Notes: a model not told the origin generated them from the sequence alone. 42,555 nucleotides of DNA from Nitrosopumilus sp. (GCA_041603475.1 JBFIEJ010000001.1:1-42555); one strand, 5' to 3'; positions 917 to 15,274 are shown, counted from the stretch's first letter. Made by a program: numbers and translations.

Positions 917-2611
917 TTGTACAATAAGTTGTTTCTACTACTTTCTCTAATTGGTATTTTTACAATTCCTGCATTAATTCCAGATGCATTTGGACATGGA
1001 CTTGGTGGAGATCAAGCTGAGCCACTAAGTTTTGGAGATATGGAAGTTACAGTCAGTACACAATTGAGTCCATCTGATATTACAGTTGGTGATATAAAGT
1101 CTGCAAATATGCAAATTCGTTTCTTTGATACTTTGACTGATAAAAATCTCGACAAAGTAACATACAGAATAGAAGTTTGGCAAAGTGGTGAGCTTTTAGC
1201 TAGAAATTTGTTTTATGACTTGGATGGAAGACTAGATGTAAAAATTAAACCAAAAGCTGATTGTAATAAAGTTCCAATAGAAAAATGCTCAATTTATGGT
1301 GGTTCAGAGCATGTAAGTGCCCCTGGTGCACTATTTGTACAAGGTGCAGAATGTACTGATGAAAATTTAGATATTTGTGCTAGACCATCAATTACTGGTC
1401 CAATATTTGTTAAAGGTGGATTATACAAAATAAGAGTTGACATTGAAGCCGCAACTAGTCCAAAAACTGTCCTTGCTAATTTACTGAGTTATGAAACTTT
1501 TGTAAGTGTTGCACAAGAGCAAAACTTTTTCTTCAAGACTGCAAATGCTGAAGAAGTTCCAGTAGTTATTAAAACATACTATGATGATGTTGATAATTTT
1601 AAATTTGATCAAAAAGATAATTCAATTTCATTTGATATGCCTTTTGATTGGAGTCCAGACTATGTAGACCTGGTTCAAGTTGTACATGAAGAAGTACGAG
1701 TACCAAAAACATTTACTCCATATGCAGAAGGCAAACAATTCAAAGGATATGTTAATGGTGTAGAGATTGATCAAAGGGCATTACTAAATGATCCCTATTC
1801 ATATGATGACACTAACATTGTTCATTTTCTAATTACTAAAAATGAATTACAAAAAATTAATGAAAAATTAGGTCCTGATAATTATGATAATAAAAAAATG
1901 GATTTGAAATTAGTTCCATTAAAAGAAACATCAAAAAGTTCTACAGAATTTTATCTTGTTGACTCCAAAAACTTTGAACAAGTTCCAACAACTGTGAATA
2001 TTTCATGGGATGGAAAATATGGTGCTAATCAAGAAATACCATTTGAGATTACATTCTTTAATGAAAATCGAAATCTAATCAAAGATGTTAGATATGGATA
2101 TGCAGTACTAGATGAACAAGGAAACAAAATTGCTGAAAACCTAGGAGATGATCCAATGGGTCCAGGAATTCTTTCAATAGAAGGATTGGATGTACAAAGA
2201 ATTTTTGTTCCATCTGAAGGTCAAATTAGATTAGATCTTTGGGTATATGGAACTGGTATAGAATATAATCCAAAATATGCAGGAATTGGCTCATCAATTA
2301 TTGAAATAGGACCAGGTAGTCCACTAGTAACTGAAACACAACAAATTCCATCATGGATAAAAAATAATGCAGGCTGGTGGGCAGATGGTTCCATAGATGA
2401 TAACTCCTTTGTTCAAGGTATTCAATATCTAATTAAAGAAAACATAATGAAAATTCCTCCAACCACACAAGGAATTGGTTCTAGTAATGAAATCCCTGCA
2501 TGGATAAAAAATAATGCAGGCTGGTGGGCAGATGGTTCCATAGATGATAACTCCTTTGTTCAAGGTATTCAATATCTGATCAAAGAAGGAATTATGAAAA
2601 TCCAATCATAG
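917..2611 (+). CDS. Secreted thaumarchaeal surface protein with two Trp-rich C-terminal repeats
   Basis: 564 aa; signal peptide ending DAFG-HG; two copies of [32 protein letters not shown]. Confidence 0.85.
2352..2577 (+). repeat. Identical 79-bp direct repeat (2352-2430 and 2499-2577)
   Basis: catggataaaaaataatgcagg...ttcaatatct occurs twice, 147 bp apart, encoding the Trp-rich repeats. Confidence 0.95.
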
Positions 2612-2644
2612 ATTTTTAAACTGTTTTTGTTAAGTGATTGTATC

Positions 2645-2851
2645 ATGAAAGACATCAATGACATCATGCCTAAAGTTCCAAACATGAAGTGGGGAGCCTT
2701 GATGAATAGACCTCCAACTAATGATAAAGTTGAGGAAATGAATAAAATTTTCCCTAGTAATGGTAAATGGCATACTGTGTTTGAAGAAAAAGATATGATA
2801 ACAATTGATGGAAAAGAAATTCGAAAAAAAGATCCAAATAAGTGGACCTAG
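2645..2851 (+). CDS. Small hypothetical protein (68 aa)
   Basis: ATG at 2645; fills the gap between two co-oriented genes and stops 1 nt before the next ATG. Confidence 0.7.
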   Translation: MKDINDIMPKVPNMKWGALMNRPPTNDKVEEMNKIFPSNGKWHTVFEEKDMITIDGKEIRKKDPNKWT

Positions 2852-2852
2852 C

Positions 2853-4409
2853 ATGAATTATCTCTCCTTATTTGCTCTGTTAATTTTCTCTTCATTGTTT
2901 GTATTTGCATTCAATGATGCATATGGACATGGAGTAGGTAGCGAAACTTTTCCTCCAGTTGAACTTGATGGGAAACTTGTCTCATTAGAACTTTCATCTT
3001 CAAAAAATGATCCTAAAACAAATGATGATCAACAAATCTCTATCTCATTAATTGACTTTAACTCTAAAATTACATTGCGCGATGTCACATTTCTAATCAA
3101 AGCTGAACGTGGTGAAACATTTCTTTTTGAAAAAGAATTCAAAGCTGATAATGGTTTTCTAGTTTTTAATTTTGTATCTGAAGATACTGAATCTGTAATT
3201 GTGGAAGAAGAAAATGGTAATGGTTTCTTTGGATCACTAATTGGAATAGAAAGCAGAATGATTCATGTTAAAGGACCAAGACTAAGCGAAGGAGGTCTTT
3301 ACAAGTTTGATATCCAAATTCTTACTGTAGATGGCTATGATAAAAAATTAAAAGATCCACTTGAGTACAATGCAGGAATATCAATTGCCCAAACCTCTAG
3401 GCATGATTTTATTGATCCAAATTTTGGAGAACAAAATATTCATGTAATTACATACTATGATAAAATTTCAGATTTTAATTACGATTCAATTTCTAAGGAA
3501 ATTAGTTTTTTTATGCCATTTGAGTGGAGTGAATCTAACATTAATCAAACCTCAGTTGTACATGAAGAACTTATAATCCCAAAAAAATTTGGCGATTTAC
3601 TAGTTTCGGGATTTACAATGTATGTCAATGGGGTAAAACTATCTGAAGATATTGTAAACATTGATGATTTTTTTTCTGATGGAAGAATTGTTCATTTTAT
3701 TATATATCAAAAAGAGTTATTGAAAATTTTTGATGATAATAAAAATCAAAATGGAATGAACTTCTTGATAAAACCTGATAGAGATTACACCCATCTTAGC
3801 TCAGTTACTGATAACGGACAATTTAGAATTCTTGTATCATGGGAGCCTGAAAATCTCAAATCAAACTCTAAGGCTAAAATAATTTTTGATATTACTGATA
3901 TTTTCTTAAAGAATAAACTTGTATCTACAAATTATGACTTTTCAGTAACTCAAAACAATAAAGTAATTTTTGAGCAAAGTGGGATTAGTACCAATGTTAA
4001 AGATGAACATAACATTATAGAATTTACAATACCGGAAAATATTTCAGGAATTGTACATCTTAATTTCAAAAATTTAGATAATAACAATCTTGCAAAGACA
4101 TCTTTTCCAATTGTAATTAATAGAGTCTCTACTAACATTGAAATTTTAATACCTGAATGGATTAGAAACAATGCATTATGGTGGTCTGAAGAGCAAATTG
4201 ATGATAATACTTTCATTCAAGGAATTGAATATTTAATTAAAAATGAAATACTTGTAATTCCTAAAACTCAACAGGAGTCATCAGAATCACAAACAATTCC
4301 TGCGTGGATTAGAAACAATGCAGGCTGGTGGGCTGCTGGAGAAATTGATAACAAAACCTTTGTTCAGGGTTTGGAATTTTTAATTCAAAAAGGAATTATT
4401 CGTGTATAA
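2853..4409 (+). CDS. Secreted surface protein, paralogue of 917-2611
   Basis: Start moved to ATG 2853 (MNYLSLF signal peptide ending DAYG-HG). Shares GGLYK, TYYD, MPFxWS, VVHEE and IVHF motifs and two Trp-rich C-terminal repeats. Confidence 0.85.
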   Translation: MNYLSLFALLIFSSLFVFAFNDAYGHGVGSETFPPVELDGKLVSLELSSSKNDPKTNDDQQISISLIDFNSKITLRDVTFLIKAERGETFLFEKEFKADNGFLVFNFVSEDTESVIVEEENGNGFFGSLIGIESRMIHVKGPRLSEGGLYKFDIQILTVDGYDKKLKDPLEYNAGISIAQTSRHDFIDPNFGEQNIHVITYYDKISDFNYDSISKEISFFMPFEWSESNINQTSVVHEELIIPKKFGDLLVSGFTMYVNGVKLSEDIVNIDDFFSDGRIVHFIIYQKELLKIFDDNKNQNGMNFLIKPDRDYTHLSSVTDNGQFRILVSWEPENLKSNSKAKIIFDITDIFLKNKLVSTNYDFSVTQNNKVIFEQSGISTNVKDEHNIIEFTIPENISGIVHLNFKNLDNNNLAKTSFPIVINRVSTNIEILIPEWIRNNALWWSEEQIDDNTFIQGIEYLIKNEILVIPKTQQESSESQTIPAWIRNNAGWWAAGEIDNKTFVQGLEFLIQKGIIRV

Positions 4410-4423
4410 GATTCTAATATATC

Positions 4424-5653
4424 ATGAAAAAAATGTTTAAATTTTTGATATTTGTATTTGGATTTTTACTTTATGCCTCACTATTTACAGAATTCTCCTT
4501 TGCCGATGTCTATATTCCTGACAATGAGTATTTGGGATATTTTGATTCACATGGAATCTATACAGTTGTTGGAAATGTAAAAAATGAAAATAATTTTGGA
4601 ATAATTCCCACCATTTCAGTTTCAATAATTGACGGTACTGAAATTGTCACAAAAAAATTTAAACATGTTCCATTGAGTCCTCAGAATGAAATTCCATTTA
4701 AAATAAAATTTAATGAATTAAAGAGCAATACGCCAATTCTTATGACTCCGGAAATACTGTTTGAGAAAACAATACATCATAATGTTCCTATTCAAATCCT
4801 TTATGACCAGACACTTGTAAAACATAATGATGGTCATATTACTGGTAGAATTCAGAATACAGGAGACAATACTATACACTATCCCAAAATTTATGCTGTA
4901 ATTCATGGTTATGAACTAGTTTTAGATATTACTCAAAACATTGAATTCATTGAAAAAATTGAGCCAGGGGAAATACTTGATTTTTCGATGTATCCTGATC
5001 CATCAATTACTGATGATATTTTTTACTACAGCTGCTTTGCACCAGTTGATACAACAGTAATACCTATCACTACAAAGAAGAATGGAGAAAATTTTGATTT
5101 TAGATATGATTCAGGCGCTTGGTATTCAAATGCTAAATTTGATGATGATGGAACAATTCTAACACTTCAAGGATACAATAGCTACCCTATTGAAACTTAT
5201 GCAAATTTTGAATTTCCACCAATTTCAGGTAATGAAAAATTTGATGTAACAATTAATGGCGAACCAATAGATTTTATCCAAAGTCTTGATGAAATGGGGC
5301 AATGGCATGTTGCATTCATTGTTGATCCACAATCTCAAGGTGTTGTTAAAATTACAGGTTTTGAAAAAGGATTACCTCCAGAATTTTCAAAAATTCCAAA
5401 TTGGATTAAAGTAAATGCAGATTGGTGGTCAACAGATCAAATCTCTGACATTGAATTTCTTGAAGGAATAGATTTTCTATTTGAGAAACAAATTTTTTCA
5501 ATAGAAAAACCAGCTGACACAAATCAATTACAATGGATGATACCTACTTGGGTAAAGATTTCTGCAAAATGGTGGATAGATGATCAAATCTCTGATGATG
5601 AATTTCTCAATATAATTGAAAATCTTGTTAAAAGAAAAATAATTGTAATTTGA
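4424..5653 (+). CDS. Secreted surface protein with Trp-rich C-terminal repeats
   Basis: Signal peptide; two GxVxN/GxIxN beta-sandwich-like segments; IPNWIKVNADWW and IPTWVKISAKWW repeats. Confidence 0.8.
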   Translation: MKKMFKFLIFVFGFLLYASLFTEFSFADVYIPDNEYLGYFDSHGIYTVVGNVKNENNFGIIPTISVSIIDGTEIVTKKFKHVPLSPQNEIPFKIKFNELKSNTPILMTPEILFEKTIHHNVPIQILYDQTLVKHNDGHITGRIQNTGDNTIHYPKIYAVIHGYELVLDITQNIEFIEKIEPGEILDFSMYPDPSITDDIFYYSCFAPVDTTVIPITTKKNGENFDFRYDSGAWYSNAKFDDDGTILTLQGYNSYPIETYANFEFPPISGNEKFDVTINGEPIDFIQSLDEMGQWHVAFIVDPQSQGVVKITGFEKGLPPEFSKIPNWIKVNADWWSTDQISDIEFLEGIDFLFEKQIFSIEKPADTNQLQWMIPTWVKISAKWWIDDQISDDEFLNIIENLVKRKIIVI

Positions 5654-9864: not shown

Positions 9865-9934
9865 AATTATTTGCTTGAATTATTAAAAAAAATCAAAATC
9901 GATTCTTAATTATTTTGTATAATTGATCACTTTC

Positions 9935-10096
9935 ATGTCAGTTGAAGTTACATGTGGTAAATGTGGTGAAAAGATCACAAACATGAAGATGCTAAAATCT
10001 CTAAAAGATGTAATGAGTCCTTACAGTGGTAAATGTCCTTCTTGTGGACAAAAACTTTCTACATCAGAGTTTTCCCTTGATGTCCAAGAAAACTGA
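9935..10096 (+). CDS. Small zinc-ribbon protein (53 aa)
   Basis: Not in the ORF track. MSVEVTCGKCGEKITNMKMLKSLKDVMSPYSGKCPSCGQKLSTSEFSLDVQEN; CxxC and CPxCG knuckles. Confidence 0.85.
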   Translation: MSVEVTCGKCGEKITNMKMLKSLKDVMSPYSGKCPSCGQKLSTSEFSLDVQEN

Positions 10097-10165: not shown

Positions 10166-10259
10166 ATGATCAAAAACTGATCCAAATTGAATCTATCATC
10201 AAGAAAAATGATCAAAAACTGATCCAAATTGAATCTATCATCAAAAAAATGATCAAAAA
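10166..10259 (+). repeat. 42/41-bp tandem repeat (2 units plus a partial third) inside a GATC cluster
   Basis: atgatcaaaaactgatccaaattgaatctatcatcaa(g)aaaa at 10166-10207 and 10208-10248; a third copy begins at 10249. Confidence 0.92.
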
Positions 10260-10278
10260 TTATCTGAAATGATCTAGT

Positions 10279-10293
10279 CACAAGTCTTATTTA
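10279..10293 (+). promoter_or_regulatory. Putative BRE/TATA of the NrdD-like gene
   Basis: CACAAGT-C-TTATTTA ending 22 nt before ATG 10316. Confidence 0.5.
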
Positions 10294-10315
10294 CTCCTTA
10301 TTTTTAGAATGATTT

Positions 10316-12409
10316 ATGGAATTGGCTGAAGAAATATCAGAGCCAAAGAGAAGTGGAATTTTACAGTCTACATCAAAACGTGTAAGGATGATTTTCTCTG
10401 TTATGGCAAGTCCTAACAGAATTGATATTCTGAGAATCTTAAATTCCAAAGGTCCTCTGACCTATTCTGAATTAAAATCCCTAGCTGGATTCAAGTCCAA
10501 AAAAGAGAGTGGCAAATTTGCATACCACTTGAGAAAATTACTAAGACAATCACTTGTAGCATTAAACAAATCTGAAAGACGTTACACAATCACAAATCTA
10601 GGAAAACTAGTTTTGAGTTTGGCAAGACAAATTGAAGAAAGATCAATTATTGAAAGTGGAAAAATGTATGTTAGAACATCACATCAATCAATTGAAGAAT
10701 TTAACTCTCATAAAATTATTCAATCTCTAGTTCGTGAAGGAAGTTTACCACTAGAACTAGCACAAAAAATTACTGAAGAAGTTGAAAACAGAATTTACAA
10801 ATATCAGACTACTTATCTTACAGGCTCTTTAATTCGAGAAATGGTGAACTCTGTCCTCTTAGAGCACGGCCATGAAGAATATAGGAACAAACTTGCACGC
10901 CTAGGAATACCTGTTTATGATGTTCAGGAGATGATCTCCAATCTAGACAATGTAGATAATGGTGCAGAAGGCCTCTTGTTTAACACGGGACAGAGAGTTT
11001 TCGCTGAACATCTGCTAACAAACATCTTGCCAAAAGATGTAGCTGACTCGCATCTCTCAGGAGACTTGCACATTACTAATCCAGGTATTTGGTCCATGAT
11101 TCCCGATACAATATTTGTAAATGTTAAAGAACTAATTGAAGATGGAATTGATCTTGGAGGAAAATATCTTGATGTATCAAGAATTGCTTCATCAAAACAA
11201 CTAGATGAAATTACTAGTGCACTATCAATTGCTATATCTCTTCTCTCAAAAGAAGCTTCACAAGAGATTGTTCTTGATGGATTACCTTCATTATTTAGCA
11301 AACATTCAAAATCATTACCTGAACTTGAGCAGAAACTAACTGATGCATTTGCAACTGCATCAACTACATCAAAATACAACAAAGTTAGTACCAATATATC
11401 AATTAGATTACAATTGGGTTCTGACACAAAGATAATTAATTCAATTATTAATGCATACAAAAATTATACAAAGATTACACCAATACCAAAAATTGGTTTG
11501 ATAATTGATCATGAAAAAGGAAAGATCACTGACGTATCAGAATCTGCATCTGAAATTCTTTCCTTAGGTGGTAAAGTCATGTTTGCAAAAGGTCAAACAT
11601 CAAGCTTTGGTGTTACAAATGGATCTACTAAGACTCTTAGTCCACTATCAATTACATTGCAATCCGTTTCTATTAATCTACCAAGACTTGCTTTTGAATC
11701 AAACAAGGATGAAACTTACTTTAGAGCAAGACTTGCATTACTAATGAAACCCGCCTTGTCTTCTATGGCATTAAGAAAGAAAGAGATTTCTGATCTTACT
11801 AGAAGAGGACTAAATCCAATACTTGCAAAGAATACTCAATACATGCAAAGAAGTTCTGTATCACTTGTTGTAAATTTGGTAGGACTCAAAGAAGCAGTCT
11901 TTAACATACTTGGATTCCAAGACAACAAAGAAGGACGAGATATCCTACACAAAGTTATAGAAACTGCAGTTGATGTCGGAGCCAAAAAAGGCAAAGAATT
12001 AGGAGATACTGTGGCCATATCCATGATTGAATCTGAAGGTGCAACCAGATTTGCCACCCTTGATGGTGAGAAATATGGTAAAAATTCATCCCTTAATTCT
12101 ATGGATGCTGATTACTATTCTGAAGGTGTTGTTATTAATGCCTCTGAGATATCTGATTTAACGGCAAAAAGTGAGCCTATTTCTGAATGCAACAAACTCT
12201 CAAAACTACTTAACGGTGGTTTACTTGTAACATTGAGCATTGACAAAGATGCCAAGCCTGAAGAAATTAAGAAAGCAATAGAGAAAGCATCAGAACTTAC
12301 TCCATCTTTCAAGCCTGTTAAGAAAATTTCAATATGTGGTGAATGTGGATTTAAAGATGAACCATTTGATGACAAGTGTCCCAAGTGTAAGTCACCATAT
12401 GTTGTCTGA
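10316..12409 (+). CDS. ArsR-like HTH + ATP-cone + degenerate class III RNR (NrdD)-fold fusion; probable regulator
   Basis: N-terminal RIDILRIL..GPLTYSELK..FAYHLRKL winged HTH; YVRT...EEFNSHKIIQSL ATP cone; HLSGDLHI and SINLPRLA NrdD motifs; C-terminal CGECG/CPKC; no glycyl-radical loop. Confidence 0.85.
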   Translation: MELAEEISEPKRSGILQSTSKRVRMIFSVMASPNRIDILRILNSKGPLTYSELKSLAGFKSKKESGKFAYHLRKLLRQSLVALNKSERRYTITNLGKLVLSLARQIEERSIIESGKMYVRTSHQSIEEFNSHKIIQSLVREGSLPLELAQKITEEVENRIYKYQTTYLTGSLIREMVNSVLLEHGHEEYRNKLARLGIPVYDVQEMISNLDNVDNGAEGLLFNTGQRVFAEHLLTNILPKDVADSHLSGDLHITNPGIWSMIPDTIFVNVKELIEDGIDLGGKYLDVSRIASSKQLDEITSALSIAISLLSKEASQEIVLDGLPSLFSKHSKSLPELEQKLTDAFATASTTSKYNKVSTNISIRLQLGSDTKIINSIINAYKNYTKITPIPKIGLIIDHEKGKITDVSESASEILSLGGKVMFAKGQTSSFGVTNGSTKTLSPLSITLQSVSINLPRLAFESNKDETYFRARLALLMKPALSSMALRKKEISDLTRRGLNPILAKNTQYMQRSSVSLVVNLVGLKEAVFNILGFQDNKEGRDILHKVIETAVDVGAKKGKELGDTVAISMIESEGATRFATLDGEKYGKNSSLNSMDADYYSEGVVINASEISDLTAKSEPISECNKLSKLLNGGLLVTLSIDKDAKPEEIKKAIEKASELTPSFKPVKKISICGECGFKDEPFDDKCPKCKSPYVV

Positions 12410-12576
12410 AATTCGTAAATGAAAAACTAGTAACGATCATTTTGAAAAATATTTTGATCTAATTCAGAGTGGCGATCATCGTCGTTTACAACTAAAGTTA
12501 TGCCAGTATGAAGTTCATAGTAGCGGTGTTAAAAATATTGACACATTGATGGGTCAAGATCAAAACTTTTCGAGCA

Positions 12577-12616
12577 CACAAGTTATATCCACATTGTTTC
12601 TAACCACTTCGGGGAG
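12577..12616 (+). promoter_or_regulatory. Putative nrdJ promoter and Shine-Dalgarno
   Basis: CACAAGTTATAT at 12577-12588; GGGGAG at 12611-12616, 6 nt before the ATG. Confidence 0.55.
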
Positions 12617-12622
12617 ATTATA

Positions 12623-15274
12623 ATGGATAATTCACAAATAGAAAATACGATCAATGAGATCCGTAAGCGCAGTGGCGCAGTAACGGCTTTCAATAAAAAC
12701 AAAATTTCTAATGCCATCTTTAGGGCATTGGCTGCCACCTCTAAAGCCGACCGTGGTTTAGCCGATCAACTAGCCGAAAAAGTAGTTGACAAACTAGTAG
12801 AGCAAGGATTTACGAGTTCTAGAACTCCAACAGTTGAGGATATTCAGGATATTGTAGAATCTACTTTAATCGATAGTGGTAATAGCGATATTGCAAAAGC
12901 CTACATTGTTTACAGACATGAAAGAAGAAAATTAAGAGATGAAAAGAAAAAGGTTCTAAATCTTAAAGCCTTAGACCCAGTTTCCAAGAAATTTGACTTG
13001 AATTGTCTTAGAGTACTAGCATCAAGATATCTTTTCAGAAATGGAAAAAATGAGATTATTGAATCACCAACTCAAATGTTTGAAAGAGTTGCAATTCTAG
13101 TTGGAATTGGTGATATTCTTTATGATGCTCAAGTATTTGATAAATCAGGAAATACTAAACAAGACATTGAAGAAGCACAATCTTATCTTGAGAAATTAGA
13201 TGCCTTTGACTATAAATTCAAAGTAGGACCTTATTTCTTTAACAAGTGGCATTTCAGATCTTTGATCAATCACTATGTTACACTTGCAAACAAAGGTCAA
13301 ATGAAAGTAAGTTTCAAAGATTTACTGACATTATTAGCAGCAAAGAAGCTTGACAACTATGCAGACAAGATAACTGAATATCTTGAGCTAATGACTGCAC
13401 AAGACTTTCTACCAAATTCACCAACAATGATGAATGCTGGGGGTAGATTAGGACAACTCTCAGCATGCTTTGTACTTGGAATGGAAGATGGAATGGAACA
13501 AATCATGAAATCAACCTCTGATGCAGCATTAATCTTCAAATCAGGCGGTGGAGTAGGTATCAACTACTCTGATCTGCGTGAAGAAGGCGATATTGTAGCA
13601 TCAACTTCAGGTGTAGCATCAGGCCCTGTGTCCTTCATGAATATTATCAATACAGTCACTGAAGTCGTTAAACAAGGAGGAAAAAGACGTGGTGCAAACA
13701 TGGGAATCATTGAAGCATGGCATCCTGATGTTGAAAAATTCATCACAAACAAAACAGAACCAGGCATTTTAGAGAACTTTAACGTAAGTGTTGGAATCTG
13801 GGAAGACTTTTGGCATGCACTTGTCAATACCGCTGATGGTAACTATGTCTTACGTAGTCCACGTGACAAAAAACCGGTAAAAGAAATCAATGCACATCAA
13901 CTCATTGATCTAATTGCATTATCTGCATGGAAGAGTGCAGAGCCTGGTTTGATCTTCTTTGATCAAATTAACAAATACAATGTATTTGCAAAAGCAAGAC
14001 AAGCACCACTAAGAGCTACAAATCCATGTGGAGAACAAAGTCTGTATCCATACGAATCATGTAATCTAGGCTCAATTAACTTGGTAAATCTTGTAAAGAG
14101 ACAAGCAGATGGAACCTATGAATTTGATTGGCAAAGATATGAAGAGACAATCAGAAAGACAACAAGATTCCTTGATAACATCATTGATGTTAATCACTAT
14201 CCAGTACCAGAAATAGATGTAGCATCAAAAGAATCTAGAAGAATTGGATTGGGAGTAATGGGAGTAGCTGATCTTCTTTACAAATTAAGAATCCCATATA
14301 ATTCCAAAGAAGGATATGAACTACAATCAAAACTATCAGAAGCTCTGACATACTATTCAATGGAAGAAAGTGTTGCACTTGCAAAATCTAGAGGTGAGTT
14401 CCCACTTTGCTCAAGGACTGAATACCCTGAAGGAAAGATCCCAGTAGCAGGATACTATGAGAAACCAAAAGAATCTCACTCCTATGAATGGGATGCACTA
14501 ATTGAGAAAATTAAAAAATATGGTATCAGAAATGTTTTGACTACCACAGTTGCACCAACAGGTACACTCTCTATGATTGCAGATTGTTCAAACGGAATGG
14601 AGCCTGCATTTGCTCTAGTCTTTGAGAAGAGAGTTACTGTTGGAAGATTCTTCTACACAAACAAGATTGTTGAAGAAGTCTTAAAGGAAGAAGGTCTTTA
14701 CAACGATGAAATTCTTGCAAAGATTGCAGACAATTATGGTTCCTTGAAAGGTATTGAAGAGATTCCACAATGGATGCAAGATGTCTTTGTTACAGCAATG
14801 GATATTCATTGGGCTGATCATCTTATGGCTCAAGGAGTATGGCAAGATTGGATTGGAAATGCAATTGCAAAAACAATCAACATGCCTTATGACGTAACTG
14901 CTGAAGATGTAAAATCTGCATATCTTCTTGCACATGAAATAGGACTAAAGGGAATTACCGTTTATCGTGACGGTTCAAGACATAAACAAGTCCTTCATAT
15001 GACTAGTGAAAATGCTGAAAAGACATTTGATGTTACACCAAGTGAACATGTAACAGAGTATGTTACAAAGAATATTACAAATTCATATGTTCAATCTCAA
15101 GTCAATGCAGCACTTGCATTAAAACCACATGACGAAGAAATTGTACTTGAACCTCCAAAACAAGAAGAGATTTCTGAAGATCGTTTGTGTCCAACATGCA
15201 AAAATAATCTTGTCTTTGTAGAGGGATGTAGTATCTGCATTGAATGTGGATACAGTGGTTGTACTTCTGGATAA
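12623..15274 (+). CDS. nrdJ: Class II (adenosylcobalamin-dependent) ribonucleotide reductase with N-terminal ATP cone
   Basis: IRKRSG ATP cone; PNSPTMMNAG, LSACFV, TNPCGEQ, SCNLGSINL, APTGT, GLKGITVYRDGSR; C-terminal CPTC/CIEC...C; no intein evident. Confidence 0.95.
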   Translation: MDNSQIENTINEIRKRSGAVTAFNKNKISNAIFRALAATSKADRGLADQLAEKVVDKLVEQGFTSSRTPTVEDIQDIVESTLIDSGNSDIAKAYIVYRHERRKLRDEKKKVLNLKALDPVSKKFDLNCLRVLASRYLFRNGKNEIIESPTQMFERVAILVGIGDILYDAQVFDKSGNTKQDIEEAQSYLEKLDAFDYKFKVGPYFFNKWHFRSLINHYVTLANKGQMKVSFKDLLTLLAAKKLDNYADKITEYLELMTAQDFLPNSPTMMNAGGRLGQLSACFVLGMEDGMEQIMKSTSDAALIFKSGGGVGINYSDLREEGDIVASTSGVASGPVSFMNIINTVTEVVKQGGKRRGANMGIIEAWHPDVEKFITNKTEPGILENFNVSVGIWEDFWHALVNTADGNYVLRSPRDKKPVKEINAHQLIDLIALSAWKSAEPGLIFFDQINKYNVFAKARQAPLRATNPCGEQSLYPYESCNLGSINLVNLVKRQADGTYEFDWQRYEETIRKTTRFLDNIIDVNHYPVPEIDVASKESRRIGLGVMGVADLLYKLRIPYNSKEGYELQSKLSEALTYYSMEESVALAKSRGEFPLCSRTEYPEGKIPVAGYYEKPKESHSYEWDALIEKIKKYGIRNVLTTTVAPTGTLSMIADCSNGMEPAFALVFEKRVTVGRFFYTNKIVEEVLKEEGLYNDEILAKIADNYGSLKGIEEIPQWMQDVFVTAMDIHWADHLMAQGVWQDWIGNAIAKTINMPYDVTAEDVKSAYLLAHEIGLKGITVYRDGSRHKQVLHMTSENAEKTFDVTPSEHVTEYVTKNITNSYVQSQVNAALALKPHDEEIVLEPPKQEEISEDRLCPTCKNNLVFVEGCSICIECGYSGCTSG

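Follow-up and report, generated by a model that had tools for sequence, protein, structure and literature searches.

In a 42,555-nucleotide stretch of Nitrosopumilus sp. DNA (the window), a gene resembling an anaerobic class III ribonucleotide reductase (RNR; NrdD) joined to a DNA-binding domain precedes the class II RNR gene nrdJ, and the question raised by this locus is whether the product of the fusion is a reductase or the regulator of one. A sequence-only reading had proposed a dead NrdD that retains its nucleotide-binding sites and acts as a transcription factor for nrdJ. The open reading frame and its architecture were recovered as that reading gave them (Table 1), with Pfam matches of the 697-aa protein to HTH_20 (residues 30-82), DUF7347 (26-100) and the ATP-cone (117-189), a weak match to NRDD (101.8 bits), and a score of 92 bits against the NrdD equivalog model TIGR02487, whose cut-off is 326. 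The motifs HLSGDLHI, SINLPRLA and GQTSSFGV were all present in the translation, the last in a cysteine-free segment as described. The count of five cysteines (625, 674, 677, 688 and 691; none in residues 1-624), with four of them in the zinc ribbon and six residues after the last, was also correct. The full-length model (pLDDT 77.7, only about 50 in the HTH part) gave class III RNRs as all of its top Foldseek matches (E 6e-21), and both model and Foldseek showed the RNR-type ten-stranded alpha/beta barrel. The winged helix, placed by the earlier reading at about residues 20-105, was found, with its boundaries moved to about 16-114 and its type assigned as ArsR/SmtB.

Table 1. Features of the fusion gene, the spacer and nrdJ, in window coordinates.
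Feature	Position	Strand	Basis
Likely BRE/TATA of pseudo-RNR gene	10277..10294	+	strongest motif other than palindromes, 20 orthologous upstream regions; putative function
Winged-helix + ATP-cone + dead class III RNR gene, 697 aa	10316..12409	+	ORF, Pfam, model
ArsR/SmtB-type winged helix-turn-helix, aa 16-114	10361..10657	+	model, Foldseek, Pfam
ATP cone, aa 117-200	10664..10915	+	Pfam PF03477, 35.8 bits vs cut-off 25.8
Class III RNR alpha/beta barrel, degenerate and with NxN flap deleted, aa 201-670	10916..12325	+	Foldseek, alignments
HITN, remnant of HxHD substrate-triphosphate motif	11069..11080	+	second His in 7/7 intact NrdDs, replaced here
T265 at beta-A cysteine position	11108..11110	+	Cys in 7/7 intact NrdDs
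G432-V433 at finger-loop Cys-Cys (thiyl radical site)	11609..11614	+	CC in 7/7 intact NrdDs
Zinc ribbon with four Cys, aa 674-691	12335..12388	+	
Tail of six residues and stop, glycyl-radical loop absent	12389..12409	+	
Box A, dyad element of nrdJ promoter	12505..12523	.	second symmetry peak (48 loci), inverted repeat I2, column conservation
Box B, palindrome TGTCAA-N5-TTGACA (consensus), candidate operator	12527..12543	.	
Likely BRE/TATA of nrdJ, 39 nt downstream of box B	12577..12588	+	archaeal promoter consensus; putative function
nrdJ, intact class II B12-dependent RNR with own ATP cone, 883 aa	12623..15274	+	Pfam, TIGR02504

Catalytic columns were compared with seven intact NrdDs from fetched loci, the roles of the motifs, HxHD included, being those given in parts of PMC11226230 and 10.1101/2022.04.23.489257. 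This alignment bore out the proposed loss of the glycine loop and catalytic cysteine and extended it, the thiyl cysteine, beta-A cysteine, HxHD, NxN flap and RxxGY all being missing. The loss is shared by the family. Glycine occupied the finger-loop cysteine column in 26/26 Nitrososphaeria and 29/39 deeper members, and the finger-loop thiyl-cysteine motif (MGCR, MCCR or QCCR/A; SFGV in the window protein) occurred in 0/66, 0/102 and 0/116 members. Orthologues with an intact RxxGY, sought as a possible refutation, were absent from all sets checked (0/120 close homologues, 0/102 HTH-bearing representatives longer than 480 aa, 0/116 distinct deeper loci), and 119 of the 120 close homologues likewise stop six residues after the last cysteine. 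In Nitrososphaeria the loop is deleted; in deeper members it is often full-length but substituted, which suggests stepwise decay, and the two glycines found at the radical position among 26 scored long tails of deeper members never stood within RxxGY. The fusion protein is thus predicted, with near certainty, to be without reductase activity.

Neither a local truncation nor a pseudogene accounts for this, both being ruled out by the wide conservation of the fusion, by selection and by the shared missing RxxGY: besides 286 of the 301 Nitrososphaeria genomes, the fusion was found in Bathyarchaeia and Asgard archaea, and none of the members checked retains RxxGY. Altogether 293 of the 301 genomes matched, 286 of them at E<=1e-60, the seven weak matches being left out. 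A profile matched 179/251 genomes of the phylum (a count that includes intact NrdD), and 40/40 fetched high-scoring loci were HTH fusions. The genome scan gave at least 585 confirmed stretches, and 78 of the 80 kept were titled Bathyarchaeia. Named representatives (part of 30) included Caldarchaeum, Terraquivivens, Culexarchaeum and Thermoprotei, and those from Asgard archaea included Promethearchaeota, Odinarchaeia, Helarchaeota, Jordarchaeia/Freyarchaeota, Baldrarchaeia, Ranarchaeia and Atabeyarchaeum. The family is far wider than nrdJ-linked aerobes. No viral copies were confirmed in viral_contigs. One fusion lay on a 5.6-kb contig titled as bacterium (L157), likely a mis-binned archaeal contig.

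In a FastTree phylogeny of 72 proteins (HTH left out, rooted on 11 MCC-type NrdDs, long branches flagged), one clade held 50/50 fusions (SH-like 100) and was sister to 11 archaeal NrdDs, all but one of QCC type. By this phylogeny the fusions have a single origin from an archaeal QCC-type NrdD. A separate intact nrdD accompanied the fusion in 24 of 40 genomes tested, whereas intact NrdD exceeded the cut-off in only 3/121 Nitrososphaeria and in 0/95 from families f1-f3, a pattern which would suggest that an old duplicate outlived its parent in aerobes.

The winged helix is the part of the protein most tightly held. Modelled separately (residues 15-115, 53 sequences), it reached a pLDDT of 94.6 with a helix-helix-HTH-wing-helix topology, and Foldseek placed ArsR-family proteins, NolR, CzrA and HlyU on top (TM 0.6-0.76). 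DUF7347 matched 53/53 family members and HTH_20 44/53; the NCBIfam model HTH_metalloreg gave 23.7 bits for the 697-aa protein, below its cut-off of 55. The recognition helix ESGKFAYHL is nearly invariant, and invariant across class Nitrososphaeria, and no metal- or redox-sensing Cys/His ligand set was found in the domain. Over 29 pairs, whose synonymous sites were nearly saturated, dN/dS was about 0.003 in the winged helix, 0.04 in the cone and 0.07 in the barrel; as judged from such comparisons the whole protein, barrel and zinc ribbon included, is under strong purifying selection. Identity to the window protein in other Thermoproteota was 52% in the cone, 33% in the winged helix and 18-19% in the barrel. 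The protein is very probably a sequence-specific DNA binder. A variable, acidic, repetitive N-terminal extension precedes the winged helix in many Nitrosopumilus orthologues (L010, L020, L023, L032).

The claim that nucleotide sites are retained for dNTP sensing stood for the ATP cone and found no sequence support at the specificity site. Cone residues V119, R120, E127, F129 and K133 are retained by column counts, and the cone is predicted, on balance, to be a working nucleotide sensor; in NrdR and NrdD it is the cone that reads ATP against dATP, according to parts of PMC9110341 and PMC11226230. Sensing through the specificity site may occur, but the sequence backs it weakly: the lysine at 294 is kept in only 6/26 and 17/39 members, and some lineages are missing the region. 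Five shortened members of 535-616 aa (L087, L091, L092, L094, L095) lack the zinc ribbon and keep the winged helix and cone; some shortened members also lack the specificity-site region, and their nearest representatives are named from Caldarchaeales. A very degenerate fusion of family f14 (L063, 1408-3348; about 20% identity), with an eroded cone and no zinc ribbon, is perhaps a decaying or re-purposed member.

The source genome (1.39 Mb, 91% complete) holds one NRDD-like gene, the fusion, and one class I/II large subunit, nrdJ, which was intact as the earlier reading had stated (TIGR02504: 722 against a cut-off of 400). The lack of the activase NrdG, previously noted for the window, held over the cut-off for NrdG and NrdG2 in the whole genome; as this is only 91% complete, the conclusion also draws on five near-complete relatives, in 5/5 of which NrdG2 over the cut-off was likewise missing. 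The best radical-SAM match in the genome resembles QueE and adjoins a folE-like gene. NrdR (TIGR00244) gave 0 matches in the genome.

Linkage of the fusion to nrdJ, whose failure would have counted against a regulatory role, was conserved in most ammonia oxidisers (kin not being independent in these counts): nrdJ lay directly 3' in 28 of the 30 best loci, window included (the exceptions were a contig end and a rearrangement), in 20/20 loci from other genera and in 23/30 nrdJ loci of families f2-f5. A different nrdJ type (33% identity) lies downstream in family f4, and a convergent nrdJ in 3/3 loci of f7. Of 116 deeper loci, 20 were followed in the same orientation by nrdD, with both QCC and MCC types represented, or by nrdJ, and 96 had no RNR gene in the fetched flank. 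In three Bathyarchaeia genomes an NrdR-like gene, one of them a confirmed NrdR, lay directly 5' of nrdD in addition to the fusion, as at L188 (3576-4028), L190 and L191, where the nrdD is of MCC type. In the 20 loci with a downstream RNR gene a glutaredoxin-like gene often intervened, as between the fusion and a QCC-type nrdD at L116 (4198-4605), L081, L102 and L113, and its product may be a reductant of NrdD3 enzymes. In families f3/f5 a Snf7 (ESCRT-III/CdvB-like) gene, its Pfam assignment checked on L039 only, lay directly 5' of the fusion (L038, 766-1368; L039, 729-1358; L041; L042; L043), a possible link to cell division. In the window a 57-aa double-CxxC zinc-finger ORF (9923-10096) lies directly 5' of the fusion gene, and in most of 20 Nitrosopumilaceae loci the end of its coding sequence could be seen upstream; between them, a 42-bp tandem duplication (10166-10249, 98% identical) sits in a GATC- and A-tract-rich stretch, and GATC-rich DNA similar to these surroundings occurs in some relatives. 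Three long ORFs at 917-5653 (564, 534 and 409 aa) had no Pfam match at E<=0.01.

The 213-bp spacer between the fusion and nrdJ contains two symmetric elements, boxes A and B, with centres about 21-22 bp apart, that is, two helical turns. Box B was found within three mismatches in 40/48 Nitrosopumilaceae loci and was also recovered by a de novo search of 20 other-genus loci (log-likelihood 87 against 24-33 for shuffled sequences, a contrast that relatedness inflates). In the 43 of 48 loci scored, the distances from box to TATA fell into two classes, 24 loci having 27-30 nt and 19 having 37-39 nt, with none between, and the distance to a fixed nrdJ codon was likewise bimodal. The classes switch 5-12 times on the tree; they look like two promoter types, perhaps old ones, so that these switches are not all independent indels. 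At L027 the spacer between fusion and nrdJ carries the two types one after the other. Where nrdJ had been relocated (G083), it carried intact boxes (score 14.2), and the copy left behind the fusion had decayed (1.2).

De novo searches did not recover the boxes in the nrdJ promoters of families f2/f3/f5 (21 promoters; 33 against 15-29 shuffled) or in 20 deeper nrdD promoters, even though the recognition helix does not vary across the class, and no shared palindrome was found in the fusion's own promoters. With a matrix trained without Nitrosopumilus loci, the window box ranked only tenth in the genome, which indicates a motif low in information. Strict-pattern matches across 30 genomes lay 5' of nrdJ (8/27 loci) or mostly in coding sequence. 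No further target in this genome was borne out among the candidates checked: the matrix matches examined fell in coding sequence (polyprenyl-synthase-like and cobT-like genes), and the top match, before a phosphoribosyltransferase gene, lay inside the upstream ORF and was unconserved in 15 orthologous loci. Weak matrix matches also occurred at purA and rps13, and a bacterial sigma-70 scan was at chance level.

On this evidence we put a probability of about 0.65 on the fusion being a nucleotide-sensing transcription factor for an RNR gene, here nrdJ; that it controls RNR genes at all is likely. The regulatory claim of the sequence-only reading is favoured indirectly by the invariant recognition helix, by linkage to several different RNR genes and by the candidate operator. 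In the mechanism we propose, the winged helices would dimerise in the manner of ArsR and bind boxes A and B, which would be occupied by two dimers or one tetramer on the same face of the DNA; ATP or dATP in the cone would alter the oligomer state or domain orientation; and the barrel, a likely dimerisation scaffold, may retain some specificity-site binding. As the boxes lie 27-31 or 37-39 nt 5' of BRE/TATA, where archaeal activators bind (parts of PMC6737238), the bound protein would bring in TBP/TFB and switch nrdJ on, most plausibly at low dATP. Activation through boxes A and B is a tentative proposal, held at somewhat less than even chances. More speculative still is the view that an ancient class III RNR duplicate, predating the Thermoproteota-Asgard split, became an archaeal master regulator of deoxynucleotide supply, whose cone would read ATP/dATP and whose retained RNR dimer interface would read dNTP balance, which would activate whichever RNR is present through tandem phased operators, and which would have outlived its parent enzyme when ammonia oxidisers turned aerobic.

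The best surviving alternative, though an unlikely one, is a nucleotide-sensing factor with a wider or different regulon (pyrB/pyrI, replication, cell-cycle), the nrdJ boxes perhaps belonging to another factor. The commonest neighbour in deeper loci is indeed pyrB (64/116, often with pyrI next), which in Bathyarchaeia outnumbers RNR genes as neighbour, but it is mostly convergent, tail-to-tail with the fusion, which is a weak sign of co-regulation, and 62 pyrB upstream regions yielded no palindrome beyond core-promoter or coding signal. The failure to find the boxes outside Nitrosopumilaceae and the coexistence of NrdR-nrdD units with the fusion in some Bathyarchaeia would fit such a factor, as would a near-invariant winged helix, which suits many sites or a conserved protein partner; against it, linkage to several unrelated RNR genes recurs, and strict-pattern matches other than those 5' of nrdJ are mostly coding.

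A variant of the preferred reading, sharing most of its evidence, is that the protein represses nrdJ as NrdR does, its dATP-loaded form bending or occluding the promoter from the tandem boxes. ArsR-family proteins are mostly repressors. The pairs of NrdR boxes are likewise integer turns apart (parts of PMC12051234), as boxes A and B are at two turns. Repression is nevertheless quite improbable here: the boxes, 27-39 nt 5' of TATA, are clear of BRE/TATA and the start, and they stay in phase with TATA, which is what contact with TBP/TFB would require.

Lower again stands a non-transcriptional pseudo-subunit, which would bind the active RNR or, using the winged helix as an unspecific anchor on DNA, hold nucleotide synthesis at the chromosome. 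Purifying selection on the whole barrel and zinc ribbon would suit it, and heterodimers could have formed after an origin by nrdD duplication; yet the protein is kept in the ammonia oxidisers without intact NrdD (0/95), and its best-kept part, the recognition helix, fits base-specific reading. That the protein has remained enzymatic, whether as a class III RNR of unusual chemistry or through a new activity of the barrel, is scarcely credible despite the retained fold, the reductase names in databases and the residues N454, R578, D583 and Y601 invariant in Nitrososphaeria, as these four are common to intact NrdD and can be structural, the host is aerobic, no thiyl cysteine, beta-A cysteine, glycyl-radical motif or activase was found, and barrel identity falls to the lowest of any domain in deeper members (18-19%).

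A nucleotide-sensing transcription factor at this locus would give archaeal RNR control a named protein with a ligand site and a candidate operator, testable in cultured ammonia oxidisers or in vitro; NrdR is rare in archaea (parts of PMC9110341), and the fusion would supply the RNR regulator that these archaea seemed to lack. A full-text literature search returned no description of an RNR pseudo-enzyme as a transcription factor, though subscription papers and supplements such as arCOG tables may carry a label for the family; the terms HTH, helix-turn-helix and ArsR are absent from the main text of the RNR phylogeny preprint (10.1101/2022.04.23.489257), and ribonucleotide and NrdD from the ancestral-genome paper on ammonia-oxidising archaea (PMC7554672). 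The predicted mis-annotation is real: automatic annotation calls the homologues reductase, HTH protein or ArsR regulator by turns, and databases enter the fusions of aerobic ammonia oxidisers and of Asgard archaea as anaerobic reductases, a mis-naming, corrected here, that skews what is concluded about oxygen tolerance and the distribution of RNRs. One dead member from Bathyarchaeia (L100, 5034-7349) even scored 328.8 against the TIGR02487 cut-off of 326.35, so pipelines will call it an active enzyme.

Metabolic enzyme folds have been reused as ligand sensors for their own pathways in Bacillus PurR and PyrR, NadR and BirA; to our knowledge, no RNR or glycyl-radical enzyme fold underlies any of these. 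The fusion is a member of neither NrdD nor NrdR. With archaeal QCC-type NrdD (NrdD3 of 10.1101/2022.04.23.489257), its sister in the tree, it shares the ATP cone, barrel, INLPR strand and zinc ribbon; compared with this and with the class III structures (T4, T. maritima, P. copri and S. thermophilus NrdD), it lacks the finger-loop cysteine, beta-A cysteine, HxHD, NxN flap, RxxGY and activase, carries an extra N-terminal winged helix and is kept in aerobes without intact NrdD. With ArsR/SmtB proteins (NolR, HlyU, CzrA, SmtB) the likeness is that of fold over residues 16-114 (TM 0.6-0.76), and HlyU, an ArsR-family structural match, is listed as an activator; in contrast to them, the fusion domain has its own GKFAYHL helix (DUF7347-like), has no metal-binding Cys/His set and is joined to a nucleotide-binding-type scaffold of about 580 aa.

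The likeness to NrdR, the bacterial RNR-specific repressor (parts of PMC9110341 and PMC12051234), lies in an ATP cone joined to a DNA-binding domain, in a gene that adjoins RNR genes, in candidate boxes that are paired, palindromic and integer turns apart and, mapped by eye, in the kept cone equivalents of V48, K50, E56 and K62. NrdR, however, has about 150 aa and binds with a zinc ribbon bearing an arginine run, whereas the fusion, at 697 aa, includes an entire RNR barrel, has an ArsR-type winged helix at its N-terminus and a cone of archaeal NrdD type, and is paired with candidate boxes of another sequence, recovered in Nitrosopumilaceae only. The functional analogy to NrdR drawn by the earlier reading therefore likely holds for purpose and probably fails for sign: NrdR represses, and the promoter geometry of the fusion suggests activation.
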